Shown here: positions 3,037 to 44,643 of the stretch, piece after piece
How positions within the stretch are numbered: position 1 is the first letter of the stretch
Layout: each line of letters begins with the position of its first letter
From: Candidatus Margulisiibacteriota bacterium
GTDB taxonomy: Bacteria > Margulisbacteria > Marinamargulisbacteria > JBFWNS01
NCBI GenBank assembly: GCA_050250935.1
Contig: JBFWNS010000003.1
Location: forward strand, 96,001-160,000
Length of the DNA: 64,000 bases
Direction of reading: 5' to 3'
Program-made: the position numbers and the translations under genes
The notes under the pieces: generated by a model
The model's input: the letters and a program-made list of their open reading frames with translations, nothing else
Told to the model about the DNA's origin: nothing
The model's database searches: none

Positions 3037-3114
3037 AGGAAGTATAGTGTTAAGTACGTGTTGGTAAGGTCTGTTTTAGAGTAAAAAATTTTGTTTTAGA
3101 GGAGTACATACATA

Positions 3115-5427
3115 ATGTTCATTCGAAAATTAATTGCGAGTCCGACGGTCCAGACGGTTCTTGAATTCAGAGACGATTTGGAGAGCGACTATGAACTTGC
3201 AATTGCTCAGTCTCGAACGGTCTTGGAGTTATTTAATGGTGCTTACGCTAGCCTTATTGCGGTTGGGAGCTTGGTTCAATCTAAAGTCGAATTTGTAGAT
3301 GTTGATCTTAATGAACACGCGCAGGGGCTTTTACAACCTAAATATGATGAGTTGTTAGTCTTTGTAGTTTCCCTTATGCAAAGTTTAGAAGCGATGCAAG
3401 AGGTCTTTGGAACAACAGATGCTGCTGAAGTCGCTACAAACGTTGCAAAAATCACAACTGCTTTGAGCGATATGGATCGGGTGTTAGGTCGCTTGACTAC
3501 TCCTCGAATAACGACTCGCGATGATTCTGCTGCGGGTTCAGCAGACGCTGAGTCTGTTGACGACGATTCTGATGCGGGTTCAGCAGAGCGTGTTGATGGC
3601 GATGATGATGTTTCTAGATCTTCTGGTGATGCTGGCACATCGCCCGATTTTCAGGATATTGCTAAAAGAGCGCAGCAATTTCTCCAGACGGTGGTTGATA
3701 ATATAGCTGGTTTGGTAAATAAACTGCTGCCCCCTGGAGCTGAACGAGCTGAACTTCTTGAACGCCTTCAAACCATTTTGACTTCTTTGAGTAAATGGAG
3801 CGGTGGTTTGGAAACAGTCTTGGGAAGAAATGACTTTTTTACAAACCCTGATGCGGTTGCTTCGGATTTAACCGCGTTGGATGCTGCACTTACACGCACA
3901 TCTAAAATCGCTGCAGTCCTTGGTGTTAAGCAACCAGATAGAGTTTTCACACGTGCAGAACAGGTGAGGGCCGATGCTGAAGGTGTTGAGAGTGAGGTAA
4001 CCGTCTTATTAGGTGGTCTTGAAACAATCAAAAAAATCGCTGCTGGTTTGGGCTTAGAAACTTCTGGTGAGACTCCCGCTGCCCAAGTGGCGAATCTTGC
4101 CACCCAAATTGATGGCCAGGTGACAGGGGTTAATAAAGACTTTGCCGACCTTTATGCGGTTACCGCAGAAAAAGCAGCCGTTGCTCTGAGGGCCGTGCTT
4201 GAAGAAGTAGTGGGTTCTACTGAGCTGTCTGGAAAAATCGATCAAGCTGTGGCGGCCGGTGTTCGTGCTCAAAATGCTCGATTGGAAATGATATCTGCAG
4301 AAAGAGAGATTGAGCAATTGCAAGCCCAATTAAGGGGTCTTCATGCTGATGAATCAAGTGCCGCTATTAGCGCTAATTTAGAGGCTGCCCAGACGAGGCT
4401 TTCTGATGCTGGAATAGTGGAACGTAGTGCTGTTCAAGCGAGTTTGGATGCAGGTGTTCAAACCGCTGCTGGGGTAACACATGCTGCTGCCGCCAAAAAA
4501 ATTGTTGATGCGTTGGTGCACGCCCAAGTCGCGAAAGAACGTGCTAATAGTGAGCCTACTATAGCGCGTCAGGCTGCAGAGGTTTCTGCAGAAGCGTCTC
4601 AAGCGGCATTGGAGGCTGTAAGGGGTCATTTGTCTAAAGACACGTTTGAGCAAAGGGATTCTATCAGAGGGCTTAAAGATTTGGTTAGGTATGCAATCAT
4701 TCTTACCAGAGGAGGTGATGCAAAAGGTCTGACCCCACTTCTTAGGGAAGTCGTTACTTTGTTGAACCAGAAAGATGTTGATTTGCAAGTTCTTCAAGGA
4801 GAGCTGGTTCGAGCCGAAACTGCCTTGGAAAGCGTTGAAACTGAATTAAGATCCGCATTACATAAAGATGAAACTGATAATACAGATGCACCTGCTCTTG
4901 CTACACAAGTCAATGCTAAGCTAAAAGAACTAGAAGACCGTTTAACAGACATCACGATTAAGCTGAAAGTACTTGCAGATAAAACACAAGGCGAGATAGA
5001 TCCACTTCTTGAAGAATTGGGTGTTCAAAAAGCCGCTGTAATAAGCTTGTTTGGGGTAACCCCAGCACAATTGGTAGAAGGACAATCAAATTATGAAGCT
5101 ATCCTTGCTAATCTGCAAACGCTGTATAGATCCACTTTTGGATCGGTAGCAGAAGTTCCAAAAACCAGAATAGCAATTTTGATGGCGTTGTTAACGGAGC
5201 TTAACCATCACGTGAAAGAGGTAAGAGAGTTTTTTGAAATCCCCGACTCTGATTCACTTTGTGGCGGTTTTTCTCGAGAGGTAGCTAAACTGACTCAGCA
5301 TAGTCAGCGCGTTCAGCGGGTAATGCTAAGGACTTCCGCGGTAGTGGGCGCATCAGCTGCTGTTTCAGCAGCTGTTGCTAAAGCTCGTAGTGCTGCGGCT
5401 TCCCCCGCTCGACCAAGTTTGTCTTGA
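3115..5427 (+). CDS. Large orphan Ala/Glu/Leu-rich coiled-coil protein (770 aa); candidate secreted effector
   Basis: GAGGAG upstream of ATG. Almost entirely helical composition, an acidic Asp/Ser linker, and an Ala-rich C-terminus. Confidence 0.8.
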   Translation: MFIRKLIASPTVQTVLEFRDDLESDYELAIAQSRTVLELFNGAYASLIAVGSLVQSKVEFVDVDLNEHAQGLLQPKYDELLVFVVSLMQSLEAMQEVFGTTDAAEVATNVAKITTALSDMDRVLGRLTTPRITTRDDSAAGSADAESVDDDSDAGSAERVDGDDDVSRSSGDAGTSPDFQDIAKRAQQFLQTVVDNIAGLVNKLLPPGAERAELLERLQTILTSLSKWSGGLETVLGRNDFFTNPDAVASDLTALDAALTRTSKIAAVLGVKQPDRVFTRAEQVRADAEGVESEVTVLLGGLETIKKIAAGLGLETSGETPAAQVANLATQIDGQVTGVNKDFADLYAVTAEKAAVALRAVLEEVVGSTELSGKIDQAVAAGVRAQNARLEMISAEREIEQLQAQLRGLHADESSAAISANLEAAQTRLSDAGIVERSAVQASLDAGVQTAAGVTHAAAAKKIVDALVHAQVAKERANSEPTIARQAAEVSAEASQAALEAVRGHLSKDTFEQRDSIRGLKDLVRYAIILTRGGDAKGLTPLLREVVTLLNQKDVDLQVLQGELVRAETALESVETELRSALHKDETDNTDAPALATQVNAKLKELEDRLTDITIKLKVLADKTQGEIDPLLEELGVQKAAVISLFGVTPAQLVEGQSNYEAILANLQTLYRSTFGSVAEVPKTRIAILMALLTELNHHVKEVREFFEIPDSDSLCGGFSREVAKLTQHSQRVQRVMLRTSAVVGASAAVSAAVAKARSAAASPARPSLS
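3523..3587 (+). repeat. Imperfect 23-nt direct repeat, 42-nt period, in frame
   Basis: gattctgctgcgggttcagcaga (3523-3545) and gattctgatgcgggttcagcaga (3565-3587), one mismatch. Encodes DSAAGSA/DSDAGSA. Confidence 0.85.
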
Positions 5428-5439
5428 TAAGCAAAGACA

Positions 5440-8400
5440 ATGCTTTGGTTTAAGCAGCTGGCTTTATCTTCTTTCGGTCTGCTTCCTGTTCGAAGGGAAG
5501 CAGGCCAGCTTGCTGCAATTTTGAAAGCTCATGGGCGTTTAGATCTTTTTCAAGCAGTCTTAGACAAGCGAACCTTTCACGATCTTCATGCATTTCTTTT
5601 AGACCAATTAACCCAGATTCCAAAACCCGAGACTCCTTCCAGTTTTTGGGCTGGGATAGAGGCTGATGATGAACCTAAAAGTATTGAGTATTTAGGACAG
5701 GTTGATGTTCATATGATGCTCGCCATCGACGTCCTAACCTGGTTTCTTAACAAAACCCTAAAACCTGACAGCCTGCAAAGCGTGTTGTCGTTGACCCTTC
5801 CAGATGCTGTCGAGGAAGGTGCTGCGGCCGTGGCTGGGGTTGCCCGTGCCGAAAGAACGCCTCGGATGCCGAGGAACTTGGATGCGATTCAATTTACGTT
5901 GGCCACTCGAGGGGTGTCTGGGGATGTTTATGCAACTTGTTTTCGCGCTAATCAGCAAGCTGTGGCGCGCTATGTAGAATATGGTCTTGGGCGTGATTTT
6001 TCTGCGGAATCGGCTCATTTTGAGGCTGAAATACACAGGCTTTGGGAAGGTCTTTTGAGCCACATGGACAACTATGCGGAAAACAGGTTGTCTGGACTTA
6101 AATTTTGTGTTGGCGACAATCCGATTCTGTTTGTCGATTTTTTGCTTACCTTTATTCAAGTGTGTCGAAAAGCATCTGGAACCAACAGGCGTAGTATCGT
6201 TGGAATTTCACCTGATGATATCTGGCATCAGGTTTTGATTGGTCATCGAAGTGAGCAGGCTATTCTTCGGCATCTTGCGGTTTTTTTAATCCATGAACCT
6301 TCTAGAAGCGTCCAAGATAGTGGCCACTTTTTAAAACGGCTTGTGGATCATGCGCTTAATGCCTTTGAAGGCTTATCTTCCGAAATGTGTGCGTGTTCGG
6401 TGGCACAATTGTCCAGCCACGAAAGACAGGCGACGCTTACATTTGGTCGTTTTTCTTCGCCTAAAAATAGACTTCAAGTTGGTCAATTTTTTGAGGGTTT
6501 TGAAAGAGATTGTCCTGTTTTGTTTAGACAACGCGTTGCTGAATTGGAAAGAACACTACAGAATATGCAAGCGCGGGTTATGGCACGCTATGAGGACTTG
6601 TGTCGTAAACTTAGTAAGGATGAAACAGACACTCATTTGCCTGGATCTCATTACTCGGCTTTGTTTGAGAAGTTGCAACAATTTGAAGGTGAATTTTTGA
6701 CGTTTCGCCAGGGTCTTATACCAGATGGTTTGAATAGCCTAGAAGCGTTTGAGGCTTTGTTCGAAGACCTTAACAGTCGTTTTGATTTGTTGTCGGGATT
6801 GGGAAATAAACTAGCGTCGACCGCTCCAATGAAAGACCTTGGTTCCCCAGTAGAACAGGATCGCTATTTTGAAGATTTGAGTAACCAATTGGCCACTTTT
6901 GACAAGAACCTTATTTCGGTTAGTTATCAAGCGTTTTTGAGACAGTTAAAGGCTCTAATGAAGTCTGTAGGAATTCCAGAACATCGTACTATCAAGATTG
7001 ACTGCTTGATATCTTCTACTAAGATGTCCCATGAAACTGATCGTCTTAGGTTGGGATACGTGTGTTATGTGGCAGAGGGGTTACGTTGTTGTTTAGCGGG
7101 GCAGGAGAACCTTAGGACCTTTTTGAGTTCTTTGGTTGAAGATAATCCTAGTGTTCAGCCTAAGGATTTTTCCCAGCCTACGGATTTATACAGCGTTGCT
7201 CAAGTGGCGCATTTGGTTGGAAAGGCTGATGGTTGTATACGCCAGTTGTTTGAAGATGTACGCGATAGGATAGATTCTTGTAAGCGTCATAATCAACGGT
7301 TGTCAATGCCCAGGTCCGCTGCTGCTGCTGCTGCTGCTACTTCTGCTGCAAGTAGAGTTGCCCATGCAACCGATCTTTATTTCGAGCTTAAGGCTCTTGA
7401 CCGGTTGGAGAGGGCTTTGGACAAACCGCTTTTGGAGATTTTACAGGAGTCCATGCCAGAGGTGGTGCTTGCGGCTTCTTCTGGGACTTCTCCCAGAGCT
7501 TCAGCTCGAGTGGCTGAAGCTGCGGCAAATGCTCAAGCCTTGTTGTCCCCTCGAGATGGGCTGCGTGTTGGCCTTTCTCCCCAAAGGGTTAGTCGTGAAG
7601 AGGTGTGCCGTGTTGCAACTTCGAAAAGGGCTGAACAGTATATTTTTTGTGCTTTTGTTTGCTTTTTGGGGGTAAAAGAACAGGTTGGTTTTAGTCATGT
7701 TCAGTTGCGCGACAAACGGTTAACCGATGGTGTCTTTAATTTGATGGCCAATGGCTTGGATGCTTTTTTAGGATGGGCTGAATCTTATGAGAGTGGAGCC
7801 TCATCCAGTTCGACGACTCCAAGAGAGTTGACGCCTTTTGCGTTAGGTCCCCGAGCAACGGCTGCTATAGAGGCTGCTCAGAAACGTGCCCTCCAGCCTT
7901 CGCCTCTTGCTGCTGCAACAGGCACGGTATCTGTTGACGGAGATGCAACAACCCCACCTTCTTCCCCTGTTTTAGGCGATTGGCGTGTAGCCCGTACAGC
8001 CGAGGATTCTGCTGCTGCCGAAAAGCGTCAGCTTCGAGAACAGCTCGAAGCGCTTCGTGAAAGTGCTAGATTTGTTGCTGGCCCTTCTTCGCCCTATGCA
8101 TCTCGTAGACTATCCTCTGGTTTCGCTTCTCCGTCCGATGGGACTCCAGATCGTGGAACGCCACGGTCTTTGGGGTCTGTTTTTGAAAGTCCGGCTTCTG
8201 CCGCGTCTGAAGATGGATGTAAAAGCTCTGGTTTGGTTCGTCGGCCTTCTTTGGTTTATCAGTCTTTTCACGCACTCCAATTGCGTAGAGCAGAAGCGCA
8301 AGCTACTCGGGGTTCTAAAGAAGTTTCAGCCGCAAGGGATAGAAGGGCTGCTGATGGCACTCAGGACCCAACTAGATATTCCCTGGAACCGCTGGATGGC

Positions 8401-9156
8401 TCTTCGGACGAGCGTATTAAAAGCCTCCAGGCCGCTGCAGAGGCGAGGCGCTTGACCGATGAGTCTCGTCTTTCGATTGACAGCGACGAGGGCGAGTGGA
8501 CTGCTCCAGCCAGCCCAGGTATTACATTTCGGAGACGAAGTGTATCGGATGGCGATCCCCGACGATCCGCAGGGACATCTCCCAGAGGTTCTGAGAGCTC
8601 TGCTCGAGTACGCAGTCTTTCTCGGGAAGAGATGATTCGAATTGTCAGAGACTCTGTGGCCCGTCATAGGCAAGAACAACCCGCTGATTCTGCACGAAGT
8701 GCAGTGGATAGCCTTCGTGGAGAACCACGGGAAGCGGTTGTTATGGAGATGGCAGAACGATATTTGTCGGCGTCTCTTGCGGGTCGAGAGCTTCCCCAGA
8801 CCTACGAGAATCTTTATTATACTCATGCTGCTGCTCGGGTTCTTACAGAGGATCGTAGACGAATACGATCCAGCGACCCTGAACAAACCCGGTCTAGCGG
8901 TGCCTCTTCTGCTCGCCCAAGCTCGAGTCAAAGTGCAGCGGCTGCAACCCGAGGTGTTGCGATGGCTGCGGCGGCACGCCATCATATTGGCCATCGTCTT
9001 GCGCCACCGCCTGCTGTTCGAGAACGAGATGGTTGGAATTCTTCGACCCGGTTAGGAAGTCAAATGGCTCAAAAATTGGACCGGCTTCATGTCAGGAGGA
9101 ATGGTGTTGATTCACCCCCTTCTGATTCTAGACCTGGAGGTAGATCTAAACGGTAA
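5440..9156 (+). CDS. Large orphan protein (1238 aa): helical N-terminal half, long Ser/Arg/Pro/Ala-rich disordered C-terminal half; candidate effector
   Basis: ORF starts 12 nt after the previous stop. C-terminal ~450 aa are low complexity with many [ST]P and RRxS motifs. Confidence 0.8.
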   Translation: MLWFKQLALSSFGLLPVRREAGQLAAILKAHGRLDLFQAVLDKRTFHDLHAFLLDQLTQIPKPETPSSFWAGIEADDEPKSIEYLGQVDVHMMLAIDVLTWFLNKTLKPDSLQSVLSLTLPDAVEEGAAAVAGVARAERTPRMPRNLDAIQFTLATRGVSGDVYATCFRANQQAVARYVEYGLGRDFSAESAHFEAEIHRLWEGLLSHMDNYAENRLSGLKFCVGDNPILFVDFLLTFIQVCRKASGTNRRSIVGISPDDIWHQVLIGHRSEQAILRHLAVFLIHEPSRSVQDSGHFLKRLVDHALNAFEGLSSEMCACSVAQLSSHERQATLTFGRFSSPKNRLQVGQFFEGFERDCPVLFRQRVAELERTLQNMQARVMARYEDLCRKLSKDETDTHLPGSHYSALFEKLQQFEGEFLTFRQGLIPDGLNSLEAFEALFEDLNSRFDLLSGLGNKLASTAPMKDLGSPVEQDRYFEDLSNQLATFDKNLISVSYQAFLRQLKALMKSVGIPEHRTIKIDCLISSTKMSHETDRLRLGYVCYVAEGLRCCLAGQENLRTFLSSLVEDNPSVQPKDFSQPTDLYSVAQVAHLVGKADGCIRQLFEDVRDRIDSCKRHNQRLSMPRSAAAAAAATSAASRVAHATDLYFELKALDRLERALDKPLLEILQESMPEVVLAASSGTSPRASARVAEAAANAQALLSPRDGLRVGLSPQRVSREEVCRVATSKRAEQYIFCAFVCFLGVKEQVGFSHVQLRDKRLTDGVFNLMANGLDAFLGWAESYESGASSSSTTPRELTPFALGPRATAAIEAAQKRALQPSPLAAATGTVSVDGDATTPPSSPVLGDWRVARTAEDSAAAEKRQLREQLEALRESARFVAGPSSPYASRRLSSGFASPSDGTPDRGTPRSLGSVFESPASAASEDGCKSSGLVRRPSLVYQSFHALQLRRAEAQATRGSKEVSAARDRRAADGTQDPTRYSLEPLDGSSDERIKSLQAAAEARRLTDESRLSIDSDEGEWTAPASPGITFRRRSVSDGDPRRSAGTSPRGSESSARVRSLSREEMIRIVRDSVARHRQEQPADSARSAVDSLRGEPREAVVMEMAERYLSASLAGRELPQTYENLYYTHAAARVLTEDRRRIRSSDPEQTRSSGASSARPSSSQSAAAATRGVAMAAAARHHIGHRLAPPPAVRERDGWNSSTRLGSQMAQKLDRLHVRRNGVDSPPSDSRPGGRSKR
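7318..7338 (+). repeat. (GCT)7 trinucleotide run encoding poly-Ala
   Basis: Seen directly. A (GCC)6 poly-Ala run also lies at 3010-3027. Confidence 0.9.
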
Positions 9157-19101: not shown

Positions 19102-19956
19102 ATGTTTCAAAAAAAGTTTCTGAGTTGCTCTGTGCCGGCTTTGCCTGTGGTAGTTAAACCTGTGTTAACGATGACCAAGCCCATTCTGTTTAGTGTTGAG
19201 GTCGGCAGTGTTGTGGTTGCAACAGACGGTTTTTACATTAAAACAAGTGGTGCAAAAATGGATTTTGTTCGGCGTGTTAATGATAGACCCTTGGGAATGG
19301 CTTCTGTTTCGGATGGGGTTGTTCTTATTTCTGCTAAAGGAGCAAGCTGTTATAAGTTTCAAGACAATGGATTGCGGTACAAAGGAGCTTTGGGTGTAAT
19401 TTCGAATCCGACTGCGATTGCATCTCATGGGGATTTTTTTTGTTTGGGAAGTCGTGACGAAGTTGTGCTTTACCAATTAAACAATTGTTCGGCTGCTGAA
19501 CAAAATCGTATTCCAGTTTCTTTGGGGGGGATTCAATTTTTGGCCATGCCGGACGAAAACACAGTGGTTGGAATTGTTCGTAAAGACGATTCCTCATATT
19601 CGTTGTTTGTTGCAAAGGAGCGTCGTGTTCAAGAAACGCCGATTGGTTTGTTTTTGGGTGAAAGTCCGACTTGCTTGGCTGTTTCTTTGGAAAAAAATGA
19701 AATTTCAGTAGGGATAGGGGAGTCCGTACTCCAGTACAAATTGGACAATCTGAACTTAACCGGATCCATTACTGTTAAAGCTGCCTCTGGGCTTGTTTAC
19801 GAGCGAAAGGGGCTTTTGATCGCAGACGAATTTGGCGTGTATTGTTTTGAAACGCGAGAAAGGTTGTCTAATGAACCTTCGAAATTGCATCTGTCTGATA
19901 ATGGGGTTATTTTAATTTCCAATCAAAATAGTCTTTTTTTATACCCTCAAAGCTAG
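19102..19956 (+). CDS. Orphan beta-rich protein (possible degenerate WD40/beta-propeller)
   Basis: Repeated short beta-strand units (PTAIASHGDFFCLG, PTCLAVSLEKNEISVG); AT-rich upstream region. Confidence 0.6.
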   Translation: MFQKKFLSCSVPALPVVVKPVLTMTKPILFSVEVGSVVVATDGFYIKTSGAKMDFVRRVNDRPLGMASVSDGVVLISAKGASCYKFQDNGLRYKGALGVISNPTAIASHGDFFCLGSRDEVVLYQLNNCSAAEQNRIPVSLGGIQFLAMPDENTVVGIVRKDDSSYSLFVAKERRVQETPIGLFLGESPTCLAVSLEKNEISVGIGESVLQYKLDNLNLTGSITVKAASGLVYERKGLLIADEFGVYCFETRERLSNEPSKLHLSDNGVILISNQNSLFLYPQS

Positions 19957-20086: not shown

Positions 20087-23000
20087 ATGCATAAACTGAT
20101 TTCGACTTCTGTGGATGCTCTGGCAACGACGAGTTCTTTGCCCTGTATGGGCTATCTTCGCAACACTGTAGCTCGTGTGGCGACCATAGCTCGGCAATTA
20201 AAGGCTGTTGGATTTCATGAAGATTCTAAAACCGAGGCCAGACGGTTATTCCAAGAAAAGGGGCCCGAAATTGAATCTGCTGTCCAATTGCTTCATGATT
20301 CACTGCCTCGGTTCACCGAAGCTTGGAATTCAGTTCAGCTTATATTTCGAAATGCAGATCGCTTTTTTTTGGAGCCCGGTTTTGAAAGAACTTTGACGCT
20401 AAGGCTTAAAATAGCGACTCACTTTCCAAAGAACTTTGATATTAATCCCGATTTATTAAGGCAGCTTGAAAAATGTGTGGTGGGCTTTAAGGGCCAGGTT
20501 ACCGATGAACTGCCACTTGTTTGTGAGCGACCAGAATATCTGGTTGAAATGGTTACCCTCCTGACTTGGGCGATTTTGCCGGATCTTTCTCTTGCCCCTT
20601 CTCAAAGAAAGGAGCTGGTGGAGTGGCTTGCCTGTAATTTGAAATTTCAAAAAATGAAGCATGCTTGCGGTTCGGGATTGCTGGAAAATAGTACTCGGAA
20701 TCGCAGAATGGTGTCTGATTTAAAAGTGAAGCTTAGTGAACAAACGGCAAAATGTACTTCAATTTTGAAAACGCTGGAAGCACGTTTGAAACACGTTGGG
20801 TTTGGGCTTAATGCATTAAACTTAGAGGTTTTAGATACAAGTTTGAAGTCTGAAGATCCAATAGATATCCGCAGCCAACTATGTGGTGCAGTCCTTGCTT
20901 TTTTTAGGGCATTTTTTCACAAATTTCCAGATACGTCGTTTGATGACTACCGATTGGATTTTCGAGTCCGCCAAGAGGCTTGGCTTGGGAATTTGGCAGG
21001 GGTTTTGGCGGGTCATTCTGGCTGTGATATGGCCCTGTATGGGCTTCCGGCCCGCGAATTTTCTAGGGTCGATTTACATGCCTTAATGGATTTTGTTGCG
21101 GGTTGCGGTCGGGTTTTGTCTTTTTCTGGGTTTTGTTCAGACTCCGTTGTTCTTTCTAAGCAACAACTGACAAAAATACAGCAACATATTAATGAACTTG
21201 AAAAAACTTGGGGATCGTTTTTTAGGGCAATTGGAGACTGGATTCATAATGTTGAAATGCCCTTTGGTGGGTTTTCGAAACGAACAATGGACATTCAAAA
21301 TGACTTAATTGCGCTGATGGCCTACATGGCCAATCACCATACCTTGTTTCAGGTTCCCGTAATGATAGGGGTCTTAGACGTTACACAATCGAATCGATCA
21401 TATGTTGTTTTGGCTTTTTCTGGAGGGCCTCAAAAAAGTATTGATCTTCAAAATTTGTTAGTGGAAACAGGTGTTTGTCGACTTTTGGAAGAAGTGTATC
21501 GATGTCAGATTGTTTTTGCGCCCCCAGTCACAAATAACGATCATTTTCAGGTGTTTCCTTCGCTTCGGGTGGGTCAAAAGAAAGATCCTGTAACGGTTGA
21601 AGAGCACAATGGCCTGGTGTGTGCGATGGATAAATTGTGGGCTCAATTGGCGATGATGAATGCTGAAGAACCGTGCCGAGTTAACGGGGTTATTGAGAGT
21701 TGGTATTCCCTTCAGCCTGGGAAAGCTCAGACGACTGCCCAGGCCAAGCCCCGCAGGCGTCTCGATCAGGTTGGGCAGTCACCAACCATGCCAGATTCCC
21801 CGGTTACGGTGGTTCAGCCAGCCCAATCGCCGAGTGCGGTGCAAGCCGGTTCTTCCTCCCCAGTTTTGGTGCTGGCACAGTCTCCCTATCCGATGGGTCC
21901 CCAGAGAACTCGTGGCTCTTTTACTGGTGTGAACTCCTTTTCCCCGGTTATTTGGCGCCGCTCTGAAGAATCAAAAAAAACGGTTGTTCAGAATGCTTTC
22001 GATCATGAGAATTTTTATAGTCCCACTCATCCAGTTTGTCTTTCGGTTCTTACTAAGGCTAGGGCTAACATGCGCCGCCTTACGGAAGATGGAGACCGAG
22101 TACTTCATTCTGCGGCAGATAACTGCCCTGGGTGTAAACTTAATTCTATGCGTATCGCAGCCCGTGTTCGGCAAGAAGCTGTTTCAGAATCTCCGTCAGT
22201 TTTGGTTCAAGTGCCTGTTACGCCGCCAAGGGCGGCTAGGGCTTTCCCGGTTTCACTCTCTACGCCGCCAGATGCCTTAAGTCCGCCAACTGATGTTCCG
22301 CCACCCCGCCCCTTTGGACCCTATAGTAGAAGGCTAGATGTTGGACATAACGCTTTCGTTCGATCTGCAGCCCAACTACGCGACAATGCGAGTCGTGAGG
22401 AGCCAAGGTTTGATCGATATTCTAGGCTTGATTCAGCCATTAAGGCTTTTCATACCCAAGCTACATCGATACGTGCAAAGTCCCTAACCTCTGATAAATT
22501 AAGGGATTTTGCAGAAGCCGTTGCCAGGCTTTTAAGCGAGCTAAATTCCATCGCCGATTTGGATTATAAGGGTGATAGGCGTTGTTGTGTTTGTGCAGAC
22601 GCTGTTCTTGACTGCTTCGAAGATATTCAGCTTGCAAATTGTTCTGATATTGAGGATGTTTTATTTACTCATCTGAATAGAAAGTTGGATGATGTGGGGC
22701 ATCAAAAATTCGGTGCTTACATTAAGGACCTCCTTACTCCTTTAACTCGAGTCCTAAATGAGCTAGGAACAAAGGACGTTTTAGCGGAACTTCAAGCGTC
22801 TTTTGGCGATGCTGATGCTGAATTGGCATTGTATGAACAGCTTAATGCTAGAAAAATGGCCGATTTAGCTCGAGAAAGAGAGACCGTTTTTGAGCGTATC
22901 AAGGCGAAATCTTCGCCTGAAGATTTTGAAGCTCTTGCAGCAGTGTTTTCTGAAGCGGACTTTTGGAATTTCGATTTTGAAGAGGTTCTTCGTAGGGCGA

Positions 23001-23098
23001 GTGGCCTCTGTTTGCCAAGCGTTGTTGACGAGTTGTATGGGTTGTTTTTGCGTTTATCAGAATTGAATAGGGCATTGGGAGTTCAAAGCACTCTCTAA
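20087..23098 (+). CDS. Large orphan protein (1003 aa) with Ser/Pro-rich inserts; candidate effector
   Basis: Long ORF; helical N- and C-terminal regions; central LAFSG / CAMD / NCPGC motifs. Confidence 0.75.
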   Translation: MHKLISTSVDALATTSSLPCMGYLRNTVARVATIARQLKAVGFHEDSKTEARRLFQEKGPEIESAVQLLHDSLPRFTEAWNSVQLIFRNADRFFLEPGFERTLTLRLKIATHFPKNFDINPDLLRQLEKCVVGFKGQVTDELPLVCERPEYLVEMVTLLTWAILPDLSLAPSQRKELVEWLACNLKFQKMKHACGSGLLENSTRNRRMVSDLKVKLSEQTAKCTSILKTLEARLKHVGFGLNALNLEVLDTSLKSEDPIDIRSQLCGAVLAFFRAFFHKFPDTSFDDYRLDFRVRQEAWLGNLAGVLAGHSGCDMALYGLPAREFSRVDLHALMDFVAGCGRVLSFSGFCSDSVVLSKQQLTKIQQHINELEKTWGSFFRAIGDWIHNVEMPFGGFSKRTMDIQNDLIALMAYMANHHTLFQVPVMIGVLDVTQSNRSYVVLAFSGGPQKSIDLQNLLVETGVCRLLEEVYRCQIVFAPPVTNNDHFQVFPSLRVGQKKDPVTVEEHNGLVCAMDKLWAQLAMMNAEEPCRVNGVIESWYSLQPGKAQTTAQAKPRRRLDQVGQSPTMPDSPVTVVQPAQSPSAVQAGSSSPVLVLAQSPYPMGPQRTRGSFTGVNSFSPVIWRRSEESKKTVVQNAFDHENFYSPTHPVCLSVLTKARANMRRLTEDGDRVLHSAADNCPGCKLNSMRIAARVRQEAVSESPSVLVQVPVTPPRAARAFPVSLSTPPDALSPPTDVPPPRPFGPYSRRLDVGHNAFVRSAAQLRDNASREEPRFDRYSRLDSAIKAFHTQATSIRAKSLTSDKLRDFAEAVARLLSELNSIADLDYKGDRRCCVCADAVLDCFEDIQLANCSDIEDVLFTHLNRKLDDVGHQKFGAYIKDLLTPLTRVLNELGTKDVLAELQASFGDADAELALYEQLNARKMADLARERETVFERIKAKSSPEDFEALAAVFSEADFWNFDFEEVLRRASGLCLPSVVDELYGLFLRLSELNRALGVQSTL

Positions 23099-39161: not shown

Positions 39162-39572
39162 ATGCACTTTTTATCCAGCCAAACGGTTAAAATGTATGAT
39201 ACGGATGCGGCAGGAATTTTGTATTTTGCCAATCAGTTTCGATTTGCCCATGATGCCTTCGAAGAATTGATGGCTTCTGAAGGGCTGTCTTTTCAACGAC
39301 TGTTTGACCACGAGCCCTATATTTTTGTAATTGTGCACGCAGAATCCGACTATTTTTCTTCTTTGAAGGTGGGGGATGGAATTCAGGTTAAAACCTGGAT
39401 TTCTTATATTGGCGAAAGTTCTTTTCATATTAGCTATGACGTTTTTAAAGGCGAGGTGCTGACGGGCCGGGCCAAAACGGTGCACGTGTGCATTGGCAAA
39501 GCGTCCCGAGCCAAGCAGTCTTTACCCGACGAAATTCGGGCTTTGTTGAACAAATACGCAGTGCTGGGCTAA
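39162..39572 (+). CDS. Hotdog-fold thioesterase, possibly DHNA-CoA thioesterase of menaquinone synthesis
   Basis: DTDAAGILYFAN...HDAFE 4-HBT-like motif; men genes lie in the window. Confidence 0.8.
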   Translation: MHFLSSQTVKMYDTDAAGILYFANQFRFAHDAFEELMASEGLSFQRLFDHEPYIFVIVHAESDYFSSLKVGDGIQVKTWISYIGESSFHISYDVFKGEVLTGRAKTVHVCIGKASRAKQSLPDEIRALLNKYAVLG

Positions 39573-39586
39573 ACTTACAAACTCCC

Positions 39587-40864
39587 ATGACACATTCTTC
39601 TCCCTGGCTTTCCAAAATAAGACACCGCCAAGATGATATTATTCATTGGATTTTGGAGTTGGAAAAACACAACCCCTTGCCCATTTATTCGTCGGTAGAT
39701 ATCCGCGATTCCGGCTATAAAGCCGCGGTGATCGATACGAATTTGTTTCCGGCTGGGTTTAACAATTTGTGCCATTTGTCTTTGGAATTTGGGGCCAAGG
39801 TTTTTAAAGAAGCCATGTTGCGCCGTGTTCCAGGTGCAAAACGGGTCTTGGTTGTGGCCGAAGAACATACCCGAAACCCTTGGTATATTGAAAATGTACG
39901 CAGTTTGGTGGGCATGGTTTCGGCTGCAGGCTTCGATTGTTTGGCGGCAACATTCATGGATTCGGAATTTGCTTTTTGCGAAACCAGTGAGTCTATTTTG
40001 TTGGATGGGGCCAGTGGGCAACCCTTTGAAATGTTTTGCCTGAAACAACTGCTGGCCAAACACCGTTCTGGCGAGATTCATTTTGATGCAGTTTTACTGA
40101 ACAACGATTTAACCGCTGGGATTCCCGAAATGTTGGCCGATTTGGAAATTCCCATGTTTCCTTCAAAATCGGCAGGTTGGCATTCCCGCTTAAAATCCAC
40201 CCACTTTACCTATTCGAACACGATGCTGGACGAATTGGCTTATAAATTGGGTGTGGATTCTTGGTTTTTTTCTTGTTTCCACGCATCCGTGGCCGATGTG
40301 AATGTGAATGAGTCCCAAGACAGACTGCGCTTGGCAGACGAAGCTTCGGGGCTATTTGCTAAAATCCGCGAAAAACATGCTTTACATGGCATCGACGATA
40401 AACCCCTGATTTTTTTGAAGTCCGATTCTGGCACCTATGGCATGGGTGTGATGCCCATCGAGGATCCCAATGATATCTTGGACTTAAATCGCAAAGCCCG
40501 AAACCAGCTGTACAAAGGGAAGGGCTCCCAGGTGATTCAGCGCTTTTTGCTTCAAGAAGGGATTCCGACCTTGTCTTCGGTGGACAATGCCATTAGCGAG
40601 CCTTGTATTTATCAGATCGACAATCAGTTTGTGGGTGGGTTTTATCGGGTTAATTCCCAAAAATCGGGGCGGGAGAATTTGAATTCTCAGGGTATGTTTT
40701 TTAAGAAAATGTGTGCGTCATCAACCGATTCTCACTGTTTAAAAGAAGATTGTGGTGCGCCGCCCAGCGAATCTTTGGATGGGTATTGCATTTTGGCCAA
40801 AATTGCTGGCATTGCGGCGGCTCGCGAAATTCGAGATTTAGAAACCACCCCTCCTGCTCAATGA
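39587..40864 (+). CDS. gshA: Glutamate--cysteine ligase (ATP-grasp type GshA)
   Basis: PIYSSVDIRDSGYKAAVIDTNLFPAGFNNL, EEHTRN, GWHSRLKS, GTYGMG, GGFYR, ENLNS; coupled to gshB. Confidence 0.9.
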   Translation: MTHSSPWLSKIRHRQDDIIHWILELEKHNPLPIYSSVDIRDSGYKAAVIDTNLFPAGFNNLCHLSLEFGAKVFKEAMLRRVPGAKRVLVVAEEHTRNPWYIENVRSLVGMVSAAGFDCLAATFMDSEFAFCETSESILLDGASGQPFEMFCLKQLLAKHRSGEIHFDAVLLNNDLTAGIPEMLADLEIPMFPSKSAGWHSRLKSTHFTYSNTMLDELAYKLGVDSWFFSCFHASVADVNVNESQDRLRLADEASGLFAKIREKHALHGIDDKPLIFLKSDSGTYGMGVMPIEDPNDILDLNRKARNQLYKGKGSQVIQRFLLQEGIPTLSSVDNAISEPCIYQIDNQFVGGFYRVNSQKSGRENLNSQGMFFKKMCASSTDSHCLKEDCGAPPSESLDGYCILAKIAGIAAAREIRDLETTPPAQ

Positions 40865-41787
40865 ATATCGTTTTTTTAATGGATCCCCTCCCTACCATTA
40901 AGCCAAACAAAGACACCAGTTTTGCCTTGATGTTGGCTGCCCACAAAAGAGGCCATTCGGTTTTTTTCTTGGGCAATACGAACCTGTATTATGCCAATCA
41001 AGGCATTCAATTTAGGGTGAATCGGGTGGTTCCCATCGATAGATCCGAAAATCCCTTCGAGGTTTTCCCCGAACAGCATCTGGGACAAGACGCGGTGGAT
41101 GTGGTTTTTATTCGAACCGATCCTCCCTTTGATGACCGCTATTTGATGAATACCTGGCTTTTGGATCGCCTGCCTGACCGGGTTAAGGTGGTTAACAATC
41201 CCACTGGTGTTCGGACCGTCAACGAAAAGCTCTGGGCGCTTCAATTTACCGATTTGATTCCCGAGACTACGGTGACCTGTAAAAAAGCGGTTTACGCCGA
41301 TTTTTTGGCCCATCATAAAACCATTATTGCGAAACCCACGGGTGGGTATGGCGGGTCTGCTGTGTTTAAGGTTCAACAGGGCGAAACCAATGCCTCGGTT
41401 ATTTTTGAATCCTTGTCGGCTGGCGAAACCCAAGAGGTGATTCTACAACCCTACATTCCCGAGGCTGATATCGGCGATAAACGGATTTTGCTTTTAAACG
41501 GCGAGCCCTTGGGGGCGGTGTTACGGGTTCATGCCCCTGGCGAGCACCGCAATAATTTTTTTGCTGGCGGTCATCCCGAGCCTGTTGGTATTACCCCCAG
41601 AGATTGGGAAATTATTAAAACCCTAAAACCAAAGCTGTTGGAACTTGGGCTTTATTTTGTGGGAATCGATGTGATCGGCGACTATTTAATCGAAGTGAAT
41701 GTGACCTCCCCAACCTGTATCCGAGAAATGGAAGCCATTTCTGGAGAGGATTTGGCGGGGAGGGTTGTTGACGCTTTAACTATCTAA
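40861..41787 (+). CDS. gshB: Glutathione synthetase
   Basis: FLMDP, KDTS, RTDPPFD, NEKL, GDKRI, GIDVIG, EVNVTSPT; ATGA overlap with gshA. Confidence 0.96.
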   Translation: MNIVFLMDPLPTIKPNKDTSFALMLAAHKRGHSVFFLGNTNLYYANQGIQFRVNRVVPIDRSENPFEVFPEQHLGQDAVDVVFIRTDPPFDDRYLMNTWLLDRLPDRVKVVNNPTGVRTVNEKLWALQFTDLIPETTVTCKKAVYADFLAHHKTIIAKPTGGYGGSAVFKVQQGETNASVIFESLSAGETQEVILQPYIPEADIGDKRILLLNGEPLGAVLRVHAPGEHRNNFFAGGHPEPVGITPRDWEIIKTLKPKLLELGLYFVGIDVIGDYLIEVNVTSPTCIREMEAISGEDLAGRVVDALTI

Positions 41788-41791
41788 ATTT

Positions 41792-42946
41792 TTAGCTATC
41801 TAGGCTGGATAATAACGCTTTTGCTTCTTCGATAACGGGAACAATAATAGCTAGGCCAGCGCCAATACGCCCTGCGCGCCAGCCTAATCCTTTTAAGAGT
41901 GCCAGAGGCCCCTCTTCTTTAACAATTTTATTGAACGCTTTGAGTGATTCTTTCAATTCGGCCAATAAGAAGTTCCTTTTCCAGGGTTCAGGGTTTGTCC
42001 TTGAAAGTTCTTGTAGAATGGTTTTAATTCGATTGAAGGGTTGGGTGATGGTGGCTGCGCCAAGTCCAGCAATGGCTCCACCCAGTGCGTTTCGGGTTGT
42101 TTGTGGATCTAGAAAAGGGACATAGTGTTGAAGGGTTGAATTTTGAATGGGTAGCCTTTTTCCAACCTCGGGTCCAAGAACGGCTGCGGCTGCCCCGTAG
42201 GGGATTTCTCTTCCTAGAATGGGGCCTACTCCCACTAAAAGTCCAGAGACACCTATGCGTTTGTATTGAGACCTCAGTGTGGTCCAGGCGGATACCTTTT
42301 TGTCCAGCAATTGCATGGTGTTGACCAATTCGCTGATTGTTGAAAACGCAGATCCGCCGACACCTGCAAAAAAGGCCGACGCAAGTTTCCATTGGGGTGT
42401 CATTGGCCTGTTGTCCTTGTATAAGGAGTCATGTAAATGCTCCACTGCATGTTGTGAAGCTTTAATGGCTGAAATATAAGCTGGGCGCAGTAAAAGTTGG
42501 ATAGGAAGTCCTCGGTAAAGCACCGAAATGCCTTCCTTTTTCACAATTTGAGGCATAGAAAGAGTGCGGTATTTTTCTAAAAGTCGGAGTGTTTGGAGAT
42601 TGTTGAATGGGGACCCTGTGGCTAAAAGTTCGGCTATACCCCCACATGATGCCGCGGCAACCGTGATGCTTAAAGGCGTTCTTCTGGTTTTTGAAGCTGG
42701 TGTGTTTGTAGGGATGCCAGCCGCTTCGAGGGCGTCGGCCTCTGTTCTGGTTAAAGGGTGGGGGTGTTTTAGATCAGCGTGATGAAGGGAAGGTGGTGGC
42801 GCAATGGGTGCCGGTGTCTTTGCGGGTGCTGGCGAAGCTGTGGGTGTAGGTGCTTTGTCTTTGGGTTGTCTAGACACTGCAACGGCGGTGCCAAGGGCTC
42901 CTACTGTTGCTACGGCTGCGGCCGTTCTTACTACTCTTGCTAACAT
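41792..42946 (-). CDS. Mitochondrial carrier family (SLC25/Solcar)-like protein with ~90-aa N-terminal extension
   Basis: Three ~100-aa repeats: PFNNLQTLR...KEGISVLYRG; ISELVNTMQ...IGVSGLLVG...REIPY; PFNRIKTILQ...EEGPLALLKG...RAGR. Bacterial RBS AAGGAG; no introns. Confidence 0.88.
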   Translation of the reverse strand: MLARVVRTAAAVATVGALGTAVAVSRQPKDKAPTPTASPAPAKTPAPIAPPPSLHHADLKHPHPLTRTEADALEAAGIPTNTPASKTRRTPLSITVAAASCGGIAELLATGSPFNNLQTLRLLEKYRTLSMPQIVKKEGISVLYRGLPIQLLLRPAYISAIKASQHAVEHLHDSLYKDNRPMTPQWKLASAFFAGVGGSAFSTISELVNTMQLLDKKVSAWTTLRSQYKRIGVSGLLVGVGPILGREIPYGAAAAVLGPEVGKRLPIQNSTLQHYVPFLDPQTTRNALGGAIAGLGAATITQPFNRIKTILQELSRTNPEPWKRNFLLAELKESLKAFNKIVKEEGPLALLKGLGWRAGRIGAGLAIIVPVIEEAKALLSSLDS

Positions 42947-43068
42947 TCGATCTCCTTGCGACGGGGTGGGGTTTTTGTAAGGGAAACTGGGGATGGTTTA
43001 AGGTTTTATAATTATCGGTATAATAAGAGAAAGAATTTCAACTTTTTCATTTCAGGGAAAGAAAATAT

Positions 43069-44643
43069 ATGGGAATTACCCTTAATCAACAAGGTTCTTA
43101 TTTAAAAAGCTGCCGCCAATTATTGTCCGAGTTGTCTTGGGGCAGTGGCGTCGAGAACTATGTTCTAAATAAAATTCCGTTTTCCTATGTGAATGGCTTG
43201 GATATGGCTGATCGGTTTGTGAAAACCTATGTTGCCCATGTGCAGCAAACTTTTAGAAATGCTTGGCCCAATGAACGATTTTTGGTGACTTTGGTTGGCG
43301 GGGGCAATGGGCTCTTGGCCAAGGCCTTTGTTCAAGGGCTAAAGCAGCAAGATCCCTTGCTTTTGGCCCAAACCGATATTTTGGTTTTGGAGCCACGGCG
43401 GGCGTTGGTGGACGCTTGCAAGACGGTGTTGCGGGATTATCCCCAGGTTCGGGTTCAACAATTTGTGTTTGATAGTCCCTTGGAAAAGCCCACCCTGGTT
43501 ATTTTTAATGGGAGCATCAGCAGTTGGCCGGCGTCGTTGTTCGAGGTTCAGGATGGCGTTTTGTCTGAACTGCATGTTCGAACAGAACTGGACGAGGATG
43601 CCATGGCCACCGAGTTGGAAGGGGGATTCCCCAAATCCTTGGATGCTTTTGAAATTGCCGAACGCTTAAGCCATTTTGATCGTATTCAAAGCCGGTCGTT
43701 TATTGACGAGGTGATGCCCTATTTGACCGATCATTTTTATGCAGTGCCTGCAACTTTGCTCATTCCACCAGAGCTAAAACAGTGGCTGGTGAACCGGGAC
43801 GAGCCCATTCGGTTTAGTTTGTCTAAAATTGCGCTTAATGTGTTGGATCAATTTTTTGCCTTGGATACCAGCTTGATTTTGATCCAAGATTTTGGTTTTG
43901 TGTTGGAATCGGCGAATCAGTCGTTTCGGGCCAGTACGCAACTGGGATCGACGATCTTTTTCCCCATTTGGTTTCCGTTGTACAAACACTGGGGGCAATC
44001 GCGGGGTTATCAGTCTTGGGCAACCCACAACAGCGCAGGTAGTGCCCAGGTTTTGGCTTTAACGCCTGCTTCGGTTCCTCAAATGACACCAGTTTTTGAA
44101 CAGGCTTTTTCTGAATTGGGAATTCGTCCTTTGGTGACGGCTTTGGCACGCTTGTCTGCGAAAGCCTCTAAAAAAGATTATTTGGCCCAGTTGGAGATTG
44201 AATTTTCCAAGTTGCCTTCGCTGTTGGCCAAAGACTATGCTTTTCATGTTAGTGTTGCCTGCGACTTGATCGCCAAACAAGGCTATGACGAGGCGTTGTC
44301 GTTGCTTGAACCCTTTATTCGTGACCACGAACCCTTTGCGATTTCGGCCCTATTTTTGATGGGCTATTGCCACGAGCAGAACAAACAATTGGAAAATGCC
44401 GAATGGTTCTACAAACAATGCTCGGGTGCTGCCCCAGATTTTTTTCCCGCGCTTGATGCTTTACTTCGGGTGTTGTGGGAAAAAGAAGACCATGCCGCTT
44501 GCGTTCCCCTCATCAAAAAAATGATGGGTTTTTCTGCTGCAAATCTGCGGTCGCTTTTGGGTAAACTTGGGGTTTGCTATTTAAAGCTGAATCAAGCCCA
44601 AAAAGCCGAAGATGTGCTGGCTTGGATGGCCAAGGGGCGCTAG
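43069..44643 (+). CDS. Protein with a degenerate SAM-methyltransferase-like N-terminal region and C-terminal TPR repeats
   Basis: GGGNGLLAKAF glycine loop and ILIQDFG; TPR-like ALFLMGYCHEQNKQLENAEWFY and LGVCYLKLNQAQKA. Confidence 0.55.
   Translation: MGITLNQQGSYLKSCRQLLSELSWGSGVENYVLNKIPFSYVNGLDMADRFVKTYVAHVQQTFRNAWPNERFLVTLVGGGNGLLAKAFVQGLKQQDPLLLAQTDILVLEPRRALVDACKTVLRDYPQVRVQQFVFDSPLEKPTLVIFNGSISSWPASLFEVQDGVLSELHVRTELDEDAMATELEGGFPKSLDAFEIAERLSHFDRIQSRSFIDEVMPYLTDHFYAVPATLLIPPELKQWLVNRDEPIRFSLSKIALNVLDQFFALDTSLILIQDFGFVLESANQSFRASTQLGSTIFFPIWFPLYKHWGQSRGYQSWATHNSAGSAQVLALTPASVPQMTPVFEQAFSELGIRPLVTALARLSAKASKKDYLAQLEIEFSKLPSLLAKDYAFHVSVACDLIAKQGYDEALSLLEPFIRDHEPFAISALFLMGYCHEQNKQLENAEWFYKQCSGAAPDFFPALDALLRVLWEKEDHAACVPLIKKMMGFSAANLRSLLGKLGVCYLKLNQAQKAEDVLAWMAKGR

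Follow-up and report, generated by a model that had tools for sequence, protein, structure and literature searches.

We here report that Candidatus Margulisiibacteriota bacterium, a member of the class Marinamargulisbacteria, encodes a mitochondrial-type (SLC25) carrier in its chromosome. The gene specifies 384 amino acids and lies on the minus strand (41792..42946) of a 64,000-nucleotide stretch of the genome (assembly GCA_050250935.1, contig JBFWNS010000003.1, positions 96,001 to 160,000), referred to as the window throughout. Its sequence relationships support acquisition from a eukaryote, and its upstream region carries a promoter-like element that recurs ahead of effector-like genes. The explanation we favour, in which we place about as much belief as doubt, is that the carrier is an effector, exported through a flagellum-type type III gate and destined for the host mitochondrial inner membrane.

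A mitochondrial carrier in a bacterial genome

That the window gene encodes an SLC25 protein, as a sequence-only reading of this DNA had proposed, is borne out by both family search and structure prediction. The full-length protein scored 78.8 bits against the Pfam profile Mito_carr (curated cut-off 22.3), and its structure model displays the six-helix carrier fold with high confidence and with a threefold helix pattern. We conclude that this is a true SLC25-fold carrier resident in a bacterial chromosome. Model and alignment place the carrier domain, with its three repeats and six long helices, at approximately residues 85–384 (41792..42694, minus strand). Scanned singly, all three repeats match Mito_carr (E = 0.012, 0.0016 and 4e-14), two of them below the cut-off; the previously proposed repeats are hence real, but the signatures by which they had been recognized are degenerate.

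Ahead of this domain, residues 1–84 (42695..42946, minus strand) form a leader that opens with an Arg-containing start, continues with an Ala/Val/Gly/Thr stretch at residues 9–25 and ends in a Pro/Thr/Ala-rich linker modelled at low confidence. We regard it as a candidate export or targeting signal. An AAGGAG ribosome-binding site (RBS), previously noted from the sequence, is indeed present 5 nt ahead of the ATG (42952..42957, minus strand). Codon usage of the gene is atypical (codon adaptation index 0.56, the 0.2nd percentile of the genome), and all six carriers of this 1.95-Mb, 95.85% complete genome fall at or below the 10th percentile. The ispG gene agrees with placement of the genome in Ca. 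Marinamargulisbacteria: its closest named matches (65–77% identity) bear this name, as compared to at most 60% identity for most other phyla.

Relationship to a protist carrier subfamily

Where does this carrier come from? Among 1.84 billion representative sequences, its closest matches are carriers of eukaryotic type, 215 of which reach E ≤ 0.001; the top ones are about 25–34% identical to it, with no close eukaryotic relative. When ten small profiles built from these matches were used to score the carrier, the best (122 bits) was that of a group that includes one protein each from Phytophthora and Legionella sp. alongside unnamed sequences; all others reached at most 98 bits, including 94 bits for an SLC25A39/40-like profile. 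A phylogeny with protist and Legionella carriers, as suggested by the sequence-only reading, pointed the same way: in a quick IQ-TREE run of 58 rows, the carrier fell on the protist/Legionella branch with an SH-aLRT support of 99. Together, the eukaryotic-type best matches and the branch shared with protist carriers support the eukaryotic origin that had been proposed, and with it the acquisition of the gene from a eukaryote by a Marinamargulisbacterium. Approximately unbiased (AU) tests rejected neither a single clade of the carriers of this class (p = 0.15) nor a grouping of the window carrier with SLC25A39/40-like proteins (p = 0.44), although the tree itself places it elsewhere; therefore, donor and number of transfers cannot be fixed.

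The members of this protist subfamily, namely a Phytophthora nicotianae protein (P0115), P0077 and P0167, and a Legionella sp. protein (P0008), share with the window carrier a helix 3 motif without the basic residue, a Pro ending helix 4 and a GxxWRxxR-like helix 6, and the helix 2 segment of the window carrier is close to that of P0077 and P0167. The latter two reside on intron-bearing contigs that, with their interrupted genes, look eukaryotic. Yet, the window carrier is only 25–26% identical to the subfamily, sits on a long branch from which no donor can be named, and has additionally lost the helix 5 acid and the helix 1 base. Compared with UCP1 (8g8w/8hbv) and the ADP/ATP carrier (1okc/4c9h/6gci), its fold is alike, a likeness that is uninformative on substrate; unlike these proteins, it has weak matrix and cytoplasmic networks as well as a bacterial RBS and promoter.

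Transport networks and candidate substrate contacts

What might the protein transport? Assigning residue roles from the alignment and by carrier numbering, we found neither a full Px[DE]xx[KR] matrix network nor a full [YF][DE]xx[KR] cytoplasmic network. Two of the six matrix-network charges are kept (E206 and K308, which we take to form one bridge), the other positions being polar; in the cytoplasmic network, the helix 4 motif is broken by P259 in place of the acid, and helix 6 retains E373 and K376. The residues aligned to the contact points on helices 2, 4 and 6 (R154/K162, R246-E247 and R360, respectively) are our candidates for substrate binding. In nucleotide carriers, contact point II reads G-[IVLM]; the corresponding R-E of the window carrier means that, in the alignment, a nucleotide-carrier binding site is not present. 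The sequence-only reading had assigned contact point II to amino-acid- or S-adenosylmethionine (SAM)-type carriers. Alignment supports the R-[DE] pattern, but the SAM type cannot be singled out, the best profile being that of a protist subfamily without known substrate.

According to a review that also provides the contact-point concept, strong networks make exchange obligatory and keep the carrier from leaking (PMC12410006). The weak networks of the window carrier therefore suggest a uniporter, or a leak, for an anionic amino-acid-type solute. Given that eukaryotic members of the same subfamily deviate in their networks, too, a canonical exchanger appears less likely, while family membership is unaffected.

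Carriers across the class

The carrier had been viewed as one of a few rare, isolated cases in bacteria, which does not hold here. The genome contains six carriers on four large contigs (the window gene, three on C4 and one each on C8 and C2). Four of the six pass the Pfam cut-off; two of the five paralogues score below it, and the paralogues are far more decayed. Throughout the phylum, Mito_carr matches occurred in 24 of 146 genomes, all within the 55-genome class and none among the 91 others. A profile of 19 class carriers, which matches its own member genomes by construction, hit 25 of the 55 and added G011, G025 and G048, giving 27 in total; in this count, G009, G023 and G033 contribute fragments, many genomes are incomplete, and related genomes are not independent. 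The carrier flanks that we read in class genomes look bacterial, with genes named from their translations.

Best local alignments among class carriers mostly show 23–34% identity. One tandem pair (L015; G008:C2) reaches 41%, and both of its members have long Pro-rich leaders. In G005, G025 and G034 (L109, L113 and L017), compact carriers of 205–237 amino acids occupy a conserved place beside a gene that, from its translation, we take to be thiG-like. These compact carriers may have been inherited vertically and be used differently from the window carrier. Divergent from the C2 carrier, we noticed an HMG-CoA lyase-like protein (G000:C2:236878-238185; L128:3379-4686; E = 1e-6 to solved lyases), whose Arg/Ala/Ser-rich start resembles, by eye, a mitochondrial presequence.

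A promoter shared with effector-like genes

Upstream of the carrier, a two-box element, TGAAA-N18-CGATAA (43012..43040, minus strand), ends 65 nt ahead of the ATG. We liken it to a sigma28 promoter on the basis of the consensus. The genome contains 206 intergenic CGATA[AT] sites, at which a second box emerges at a fixed distance: TG[CA]AA-N-CGATA[AT] occurs 42 times with a spacer of 17 (37 intergenic) and 16 times with a spacer of 18 (11 intergenic), as compared to 2–12 occurrences, 0–3 of them intergenic, at each of nine other spacers (12–22). A stricter pattern gave 45 sites in this genome versus 0 for a reversed control, and was found in all 55 class genomes, mostly far above control. With a matrix trained on 44 sites, the four carrier sites left out, 59 of 1634 called genes scored at least 16, and four of the six carriers exceeded 21 bits (enrichment p = 2e-5; p = 4e-4 without the window carrier).

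Which proteins share this promoter? Behind promoter sites lie 59 proteins other than carriers, and 41 of these lack any Pfam match. Matches among the set comprise Myb (E = 9e-25), two F-boxes (one with armadillo repeats), two Ser/Thr kinases, ADP-ribosyltransferase, PP2C, MORN and ABC1 kinase, and also ordinary enzymes. An N-terminal K-[x]-[IVLF]-[ASP] tag marks 27 of the 59 as against 62 of 1575 other proteins, a descriptive figure since the pattern was derived from the set itself. The start of the window carrier resembles those of three other members, which are Arg-rich and acid-poor. Sharing a promoter with effector-like genes, the carrier is probably exported into a host cell.

Several members of the set deserve mention in their own right. 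The Myb protein (G000:C3:6511-7428; L154) has repeated DNA-binding domains of a kind found in eukaryotic transcription factors, here encoded by a bacterium. Two small proteins (G000:C1:446313-446927 and C5:5511-6116) have Arg-rich leaders like the window carrier and no Pfam match; their HGT motif is reminiscent of PARP-like ADP-ribosyltransferases. A protein of 1105 amino acids (G000:C1:468292-471609; L141) contains a phosphoenolpyruvate carboxylase-like domain (E = 1.8e-15). The window itself encodes five large orphans that start with the K-type tag known from the set and have no Pfam match above cut-off (427-9156, 19102-19956 and 20087-23098); these are candidate effectors.

A flagellar export machine without a recognizable filament

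By which route could such proteins leave the cell? Among the flagellar components that our scans covered, the genome encodes FlhA, FlhB, FliP, FliR, FliM, FliN, FliF, FlgF/G/A/H/I and FliH/I/J, representing the export gate, the ATPase complex, the rings (MS and C rings among them) and the rods, as well as a FliA-like sigma factor and one secretin. Flagellin (Flagellin_N) and FliD (FliD_C) were not found in this 95.85% complete genome, nor was FlgK (FlgK_D1) in any of the 55 class genomes, the positive controls giving matches in each case. Within the class, FlhA is present in 49 and flagellin in 1 of 55 genomes; for the phylum, the respective numbers are 135 and 15 of 146. FlhA matches twice in most genomes that encode flagellin; in those among G057-G069, which belong to other classes, a filament-less machine thus seems to exist alongside a true flagellum.

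Sigma28 normally drives late type III substrates, and the promoter set is therefore most simply read as the cargo of the filament-less machine. This renders the flagellum-type type III gate a candidate export route of the carrier. The Dot/Icm route of the Legionella carrier LncP, to which the sequence-only reading had likened the protein, appears unlikely here: VirB4 was not found, with a positive control that gave matches, and DotH/IcmK (PF12293) was found in 0 of 55 class genomes, albeit with a silent positive control. VipB was not found either, its positive control giving matches. By a simple hydropathy heuristic, none of 45 class carriers has a Sec-like leader; in 21 of the 45, the start is so rich in Pro, Ser and Thr that it reaches or exceeds the 95th percentile of this genome's proteins. 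Near the export gate lies a run of orphans, two small and three larger, helical-looking (G000:C5:133078-139374; L135:5078-11374). Four of them were scanned against Pfam and NCBIfam, and none scored above cut-off; they are possible needle, tip or translocon parts.

Discussion

How could these elements work together? In the explanation that we favour, a Marinamargulisbacterium that inhabits a eukaryotic cell or its surface, the host probably being a protist, would have taken the carrier from a eukaryote and would employ it as an effector. The promoter-like element common to the carrier and effector-like genes would be read by the FliA-like sigma factor of the basal-body cluster, and the filament-less flagellar type III gate would export the promoter-set proteins instead of flagellin, with the leader serving as the signal. 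By analogy with LncP, the host would then import the carrier into its mitochondrial inner membrane, where, both gates being weakened, an anionic amino-acid-type solute might pass by uniport or leak via R246-E247, R154/K162 and R360. Such a leak would drain or upset mitochondrial pools. We deem this use on host mitochondria plausible.

Precedents exist for several of these steps. LncP of Legionella pneumophila is likewise a chromosomally encoded SLC25 protein of presumed eukaryotic origin that has several paralogues in some genomes and is proposed to end up in the inner membrane of host mitochondria (PMC3252375). It uses Dot/Icm, carries ATP/GTP and has been shown to be exported, whereas export of the window carrier is predicted; the latter further differs by R-E at contact point II, an 84-residue leader, its residence in Margulisbacteria and a candidate flagellum-type type III route. 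Further SLC25 genes, of substrate not known, occur in the intracellular bacteria Babela massiliensis and Neorickettsia sennetsu (PMC4378268, PMC3252375), both of other phyla; Babela also has TLC translocases. For Buchnera, filament-less basal bodies have been proposed as a secretion route, with SyeA as a secreted protein (PMC13468123). Basal body and type III gate are kept and the filament is lost in both organisms; the present genome differs from Buchnera in that FlgK, too, was not found, in that it retains a MotA/MotB-like pair along with a FliA-like sigma, and in that one promoter is common to dozens of genes that are eukaryote-like or orphans. Within the same class, 'Ca. Ruthmannia eludens' lives inside host cells and is connected by tubular links to the vacuole of its host (PMC6784892). 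A canonical secretion system was not found in that study, but a supplementary table lists FliM, FliI, FlhA and a flagellar sigma as expressed, with no flagellin among its 21 'flagell' rows. One genome of the class was obtained by sorting an individual protist (PMC6349859, supplement 11).

A number of observations weigh against the favoured explanation. No mitochondrial carrier is named in the table for R. eludens (PMC6784892), and the supplementary material of PMC6349859, of which supplements 1-12 of 29 were covered and 13-29 could list carriers, calls Margulisbacteria motile by polar flagella. A MotA/MotB-like pair is present in our genome (G000:C2:21716-23255), so the stator is not missing, and the basal body may carry an unrecognized filament. 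The FliA-like sigma scores 124 bits, below the family cut-off of 189.6. Since the machine is phylum-wide (135/146) and the carriers are confined to one class, it may serve another role. As to the promoter, its -10 hexamer was picked after having been seen upstream of the window carrier, and among carriers of other class genomes just 2 of 37 score at least 16, which is about the background rate, so that the link between carriers and promoter is not class-wide. The window carrier is devoid of the K-type tag, 5 of the 59 promoter-set proteins are Sec-like, and the Ala-rich leader stretch, which contains an AVA motif, might represent a signal peptide of unusual type.

Could the protein be exported and still not be a working mitochondrial transporter? 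It might act as a decoy, leak or scaffold, or in another membrane (symbiont vacuole, peroxisome or endoplasmic reticulum contact), reminiscent of the debated Legionella protein Lpg1137, which is homologous to carriers and has been connected with the cleavage of syntaxin 17 (PMC5621508). We judge this unlikely, though the best of the alternatives. Loss of four of the six matrix-network charges, the Pro in place of the helix 4 acid and the advanced decay of the paralogues would fit such a role. However, the losses look paired rather than random, the contact residues are kept, intact eukaryotic members of the subfamily show several of the same changes, and the fold is predicted with high confidence. 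The comparison with Lpg1137 (Pfam SLC25_like) is likewise two-sided: both are degenerate carrier folds in a bacterium, yet the window carrier matches Mito_carr strongly and SLC25_like only at E = 0.27 on one repeat, and it keeps its contact-point residues.

Alternatively, the carrier may work in the inner membrane of the bacterium itself and import host or environmental metabolites in place of TLC-type translocases, for which no match was found in any of the 55 class genomes, though the positive control was silent. Compatible with this are the two Arg, the uncharged 17-residue stretch and the AVA motif of the leader, and the fact that some class carriers are fixed beside housekeeping genes, such as the presumed thiG. 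As a Sec signal, however, the stretch is weak (mean hydropathy 1.78; one L/I/F/W), with two or fewer such residues in just 9 of 362 genome proteins with a hydrophobic start, and no class carrier passed the Sec heuristic. Besides, the promoter is common to Myb, F-box and kinase genes, whose products would be useless in a bacterial membrane, and weak gates would be expected to leak in an energised membrane, extrapolating from PMC12410006. This location thus seems doubtful.

Far less probable is a function in glutathione transport, linked to the glutathione genes next door. The sequence-only reading had pointed to the 4-nt distance from gshB (glutathione synthetase; 40861..41787, plus strand), next to which lies gshA (glutamate-cysteine ligase; 39488..40864, plus strand). 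Many best matches, one of them so named, look SLC25A39/40-like by their motif, and the AU test tolerates the corresponding grouping. The adjacency is real but incidental: the carrier gene and gshB are convergent, the carrier has a separate promoter, and the protist/Legionella profile outscores the SLC25A39/40-like one. Moreover, none of 24 other class gshB loci examined (34 genomes have gshB) is flanked by a carrier within 1.5 kb, some loci being cut by contig ends. On the opposite side, the divergent neighbour of the carrier encodes a SAM-methyltransferase-like protein with TPR repeats (43069..44643, plus strand). Finally, an assembly chimera or eukaryotic contamination, as eukaryotic best matches and atypical codon use might suggest, is already largely refuted by bacterial flanks, RBS and genome-typical promoter, the spread of the six paralogues over large contigs, the lack of a close eukaryotic relative, and the flank check that the sequence-only reading had called for, in which read depth proved flat and a second sample supplied a bridging contig.

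What, then, does the carrier tell us about its bearers? Our literature search, excluding subscription papers, found no paper joining 'Margulisbacteria' and 'mitochondrial carrier'; for 'Margulisbacteria' and 'type III secretion', it listed literature that, judged from the listing, concerns other topics, and beyond that nothing on this link. PMC12644861 and 10.1101/2025.05.29.656868 yielded no relevant passage. Bacterial mitochondrial carriers are known from few intracellular lineages, with LncP as the one tested case, and the Marinamargulisbacteria, a class beside the Cyanobacteria, have mostly been treated as planktonic and flagellated. More tentatively, and with the balance of probability somewhat against it, we propose that these bacteria are broadly eukaryote-associated and have turned the flagellar basal body into an effector injector, with a sigma28 regulon in which dozens of effectors, including sets of carriers repeatedly taken from hosts as well as other proteins with presequence-like leaders, replace flagellin and remodel host mitochondrial transport. 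If true, six-helix carrier effectors would have a type III route of their own that owes nothing to the Dot/Icm system of Legionella, and 'Ca. Ruthmannia eludens' would have the secretion system that was reported to be missing. The shared promoter yields a testable list of about 59 candidate effectors, for which the filament-less flagellar machine would be the exit, and the window carrier, as a natural, weakly gated member of an uncharacterised protist subfamily, should be useful for transport studies. Present in about half of an uncultured class, and six to a genome here, mitochondrial carriers would mark the Marinamargulisbacteria as shaped by association with eukaryotes.
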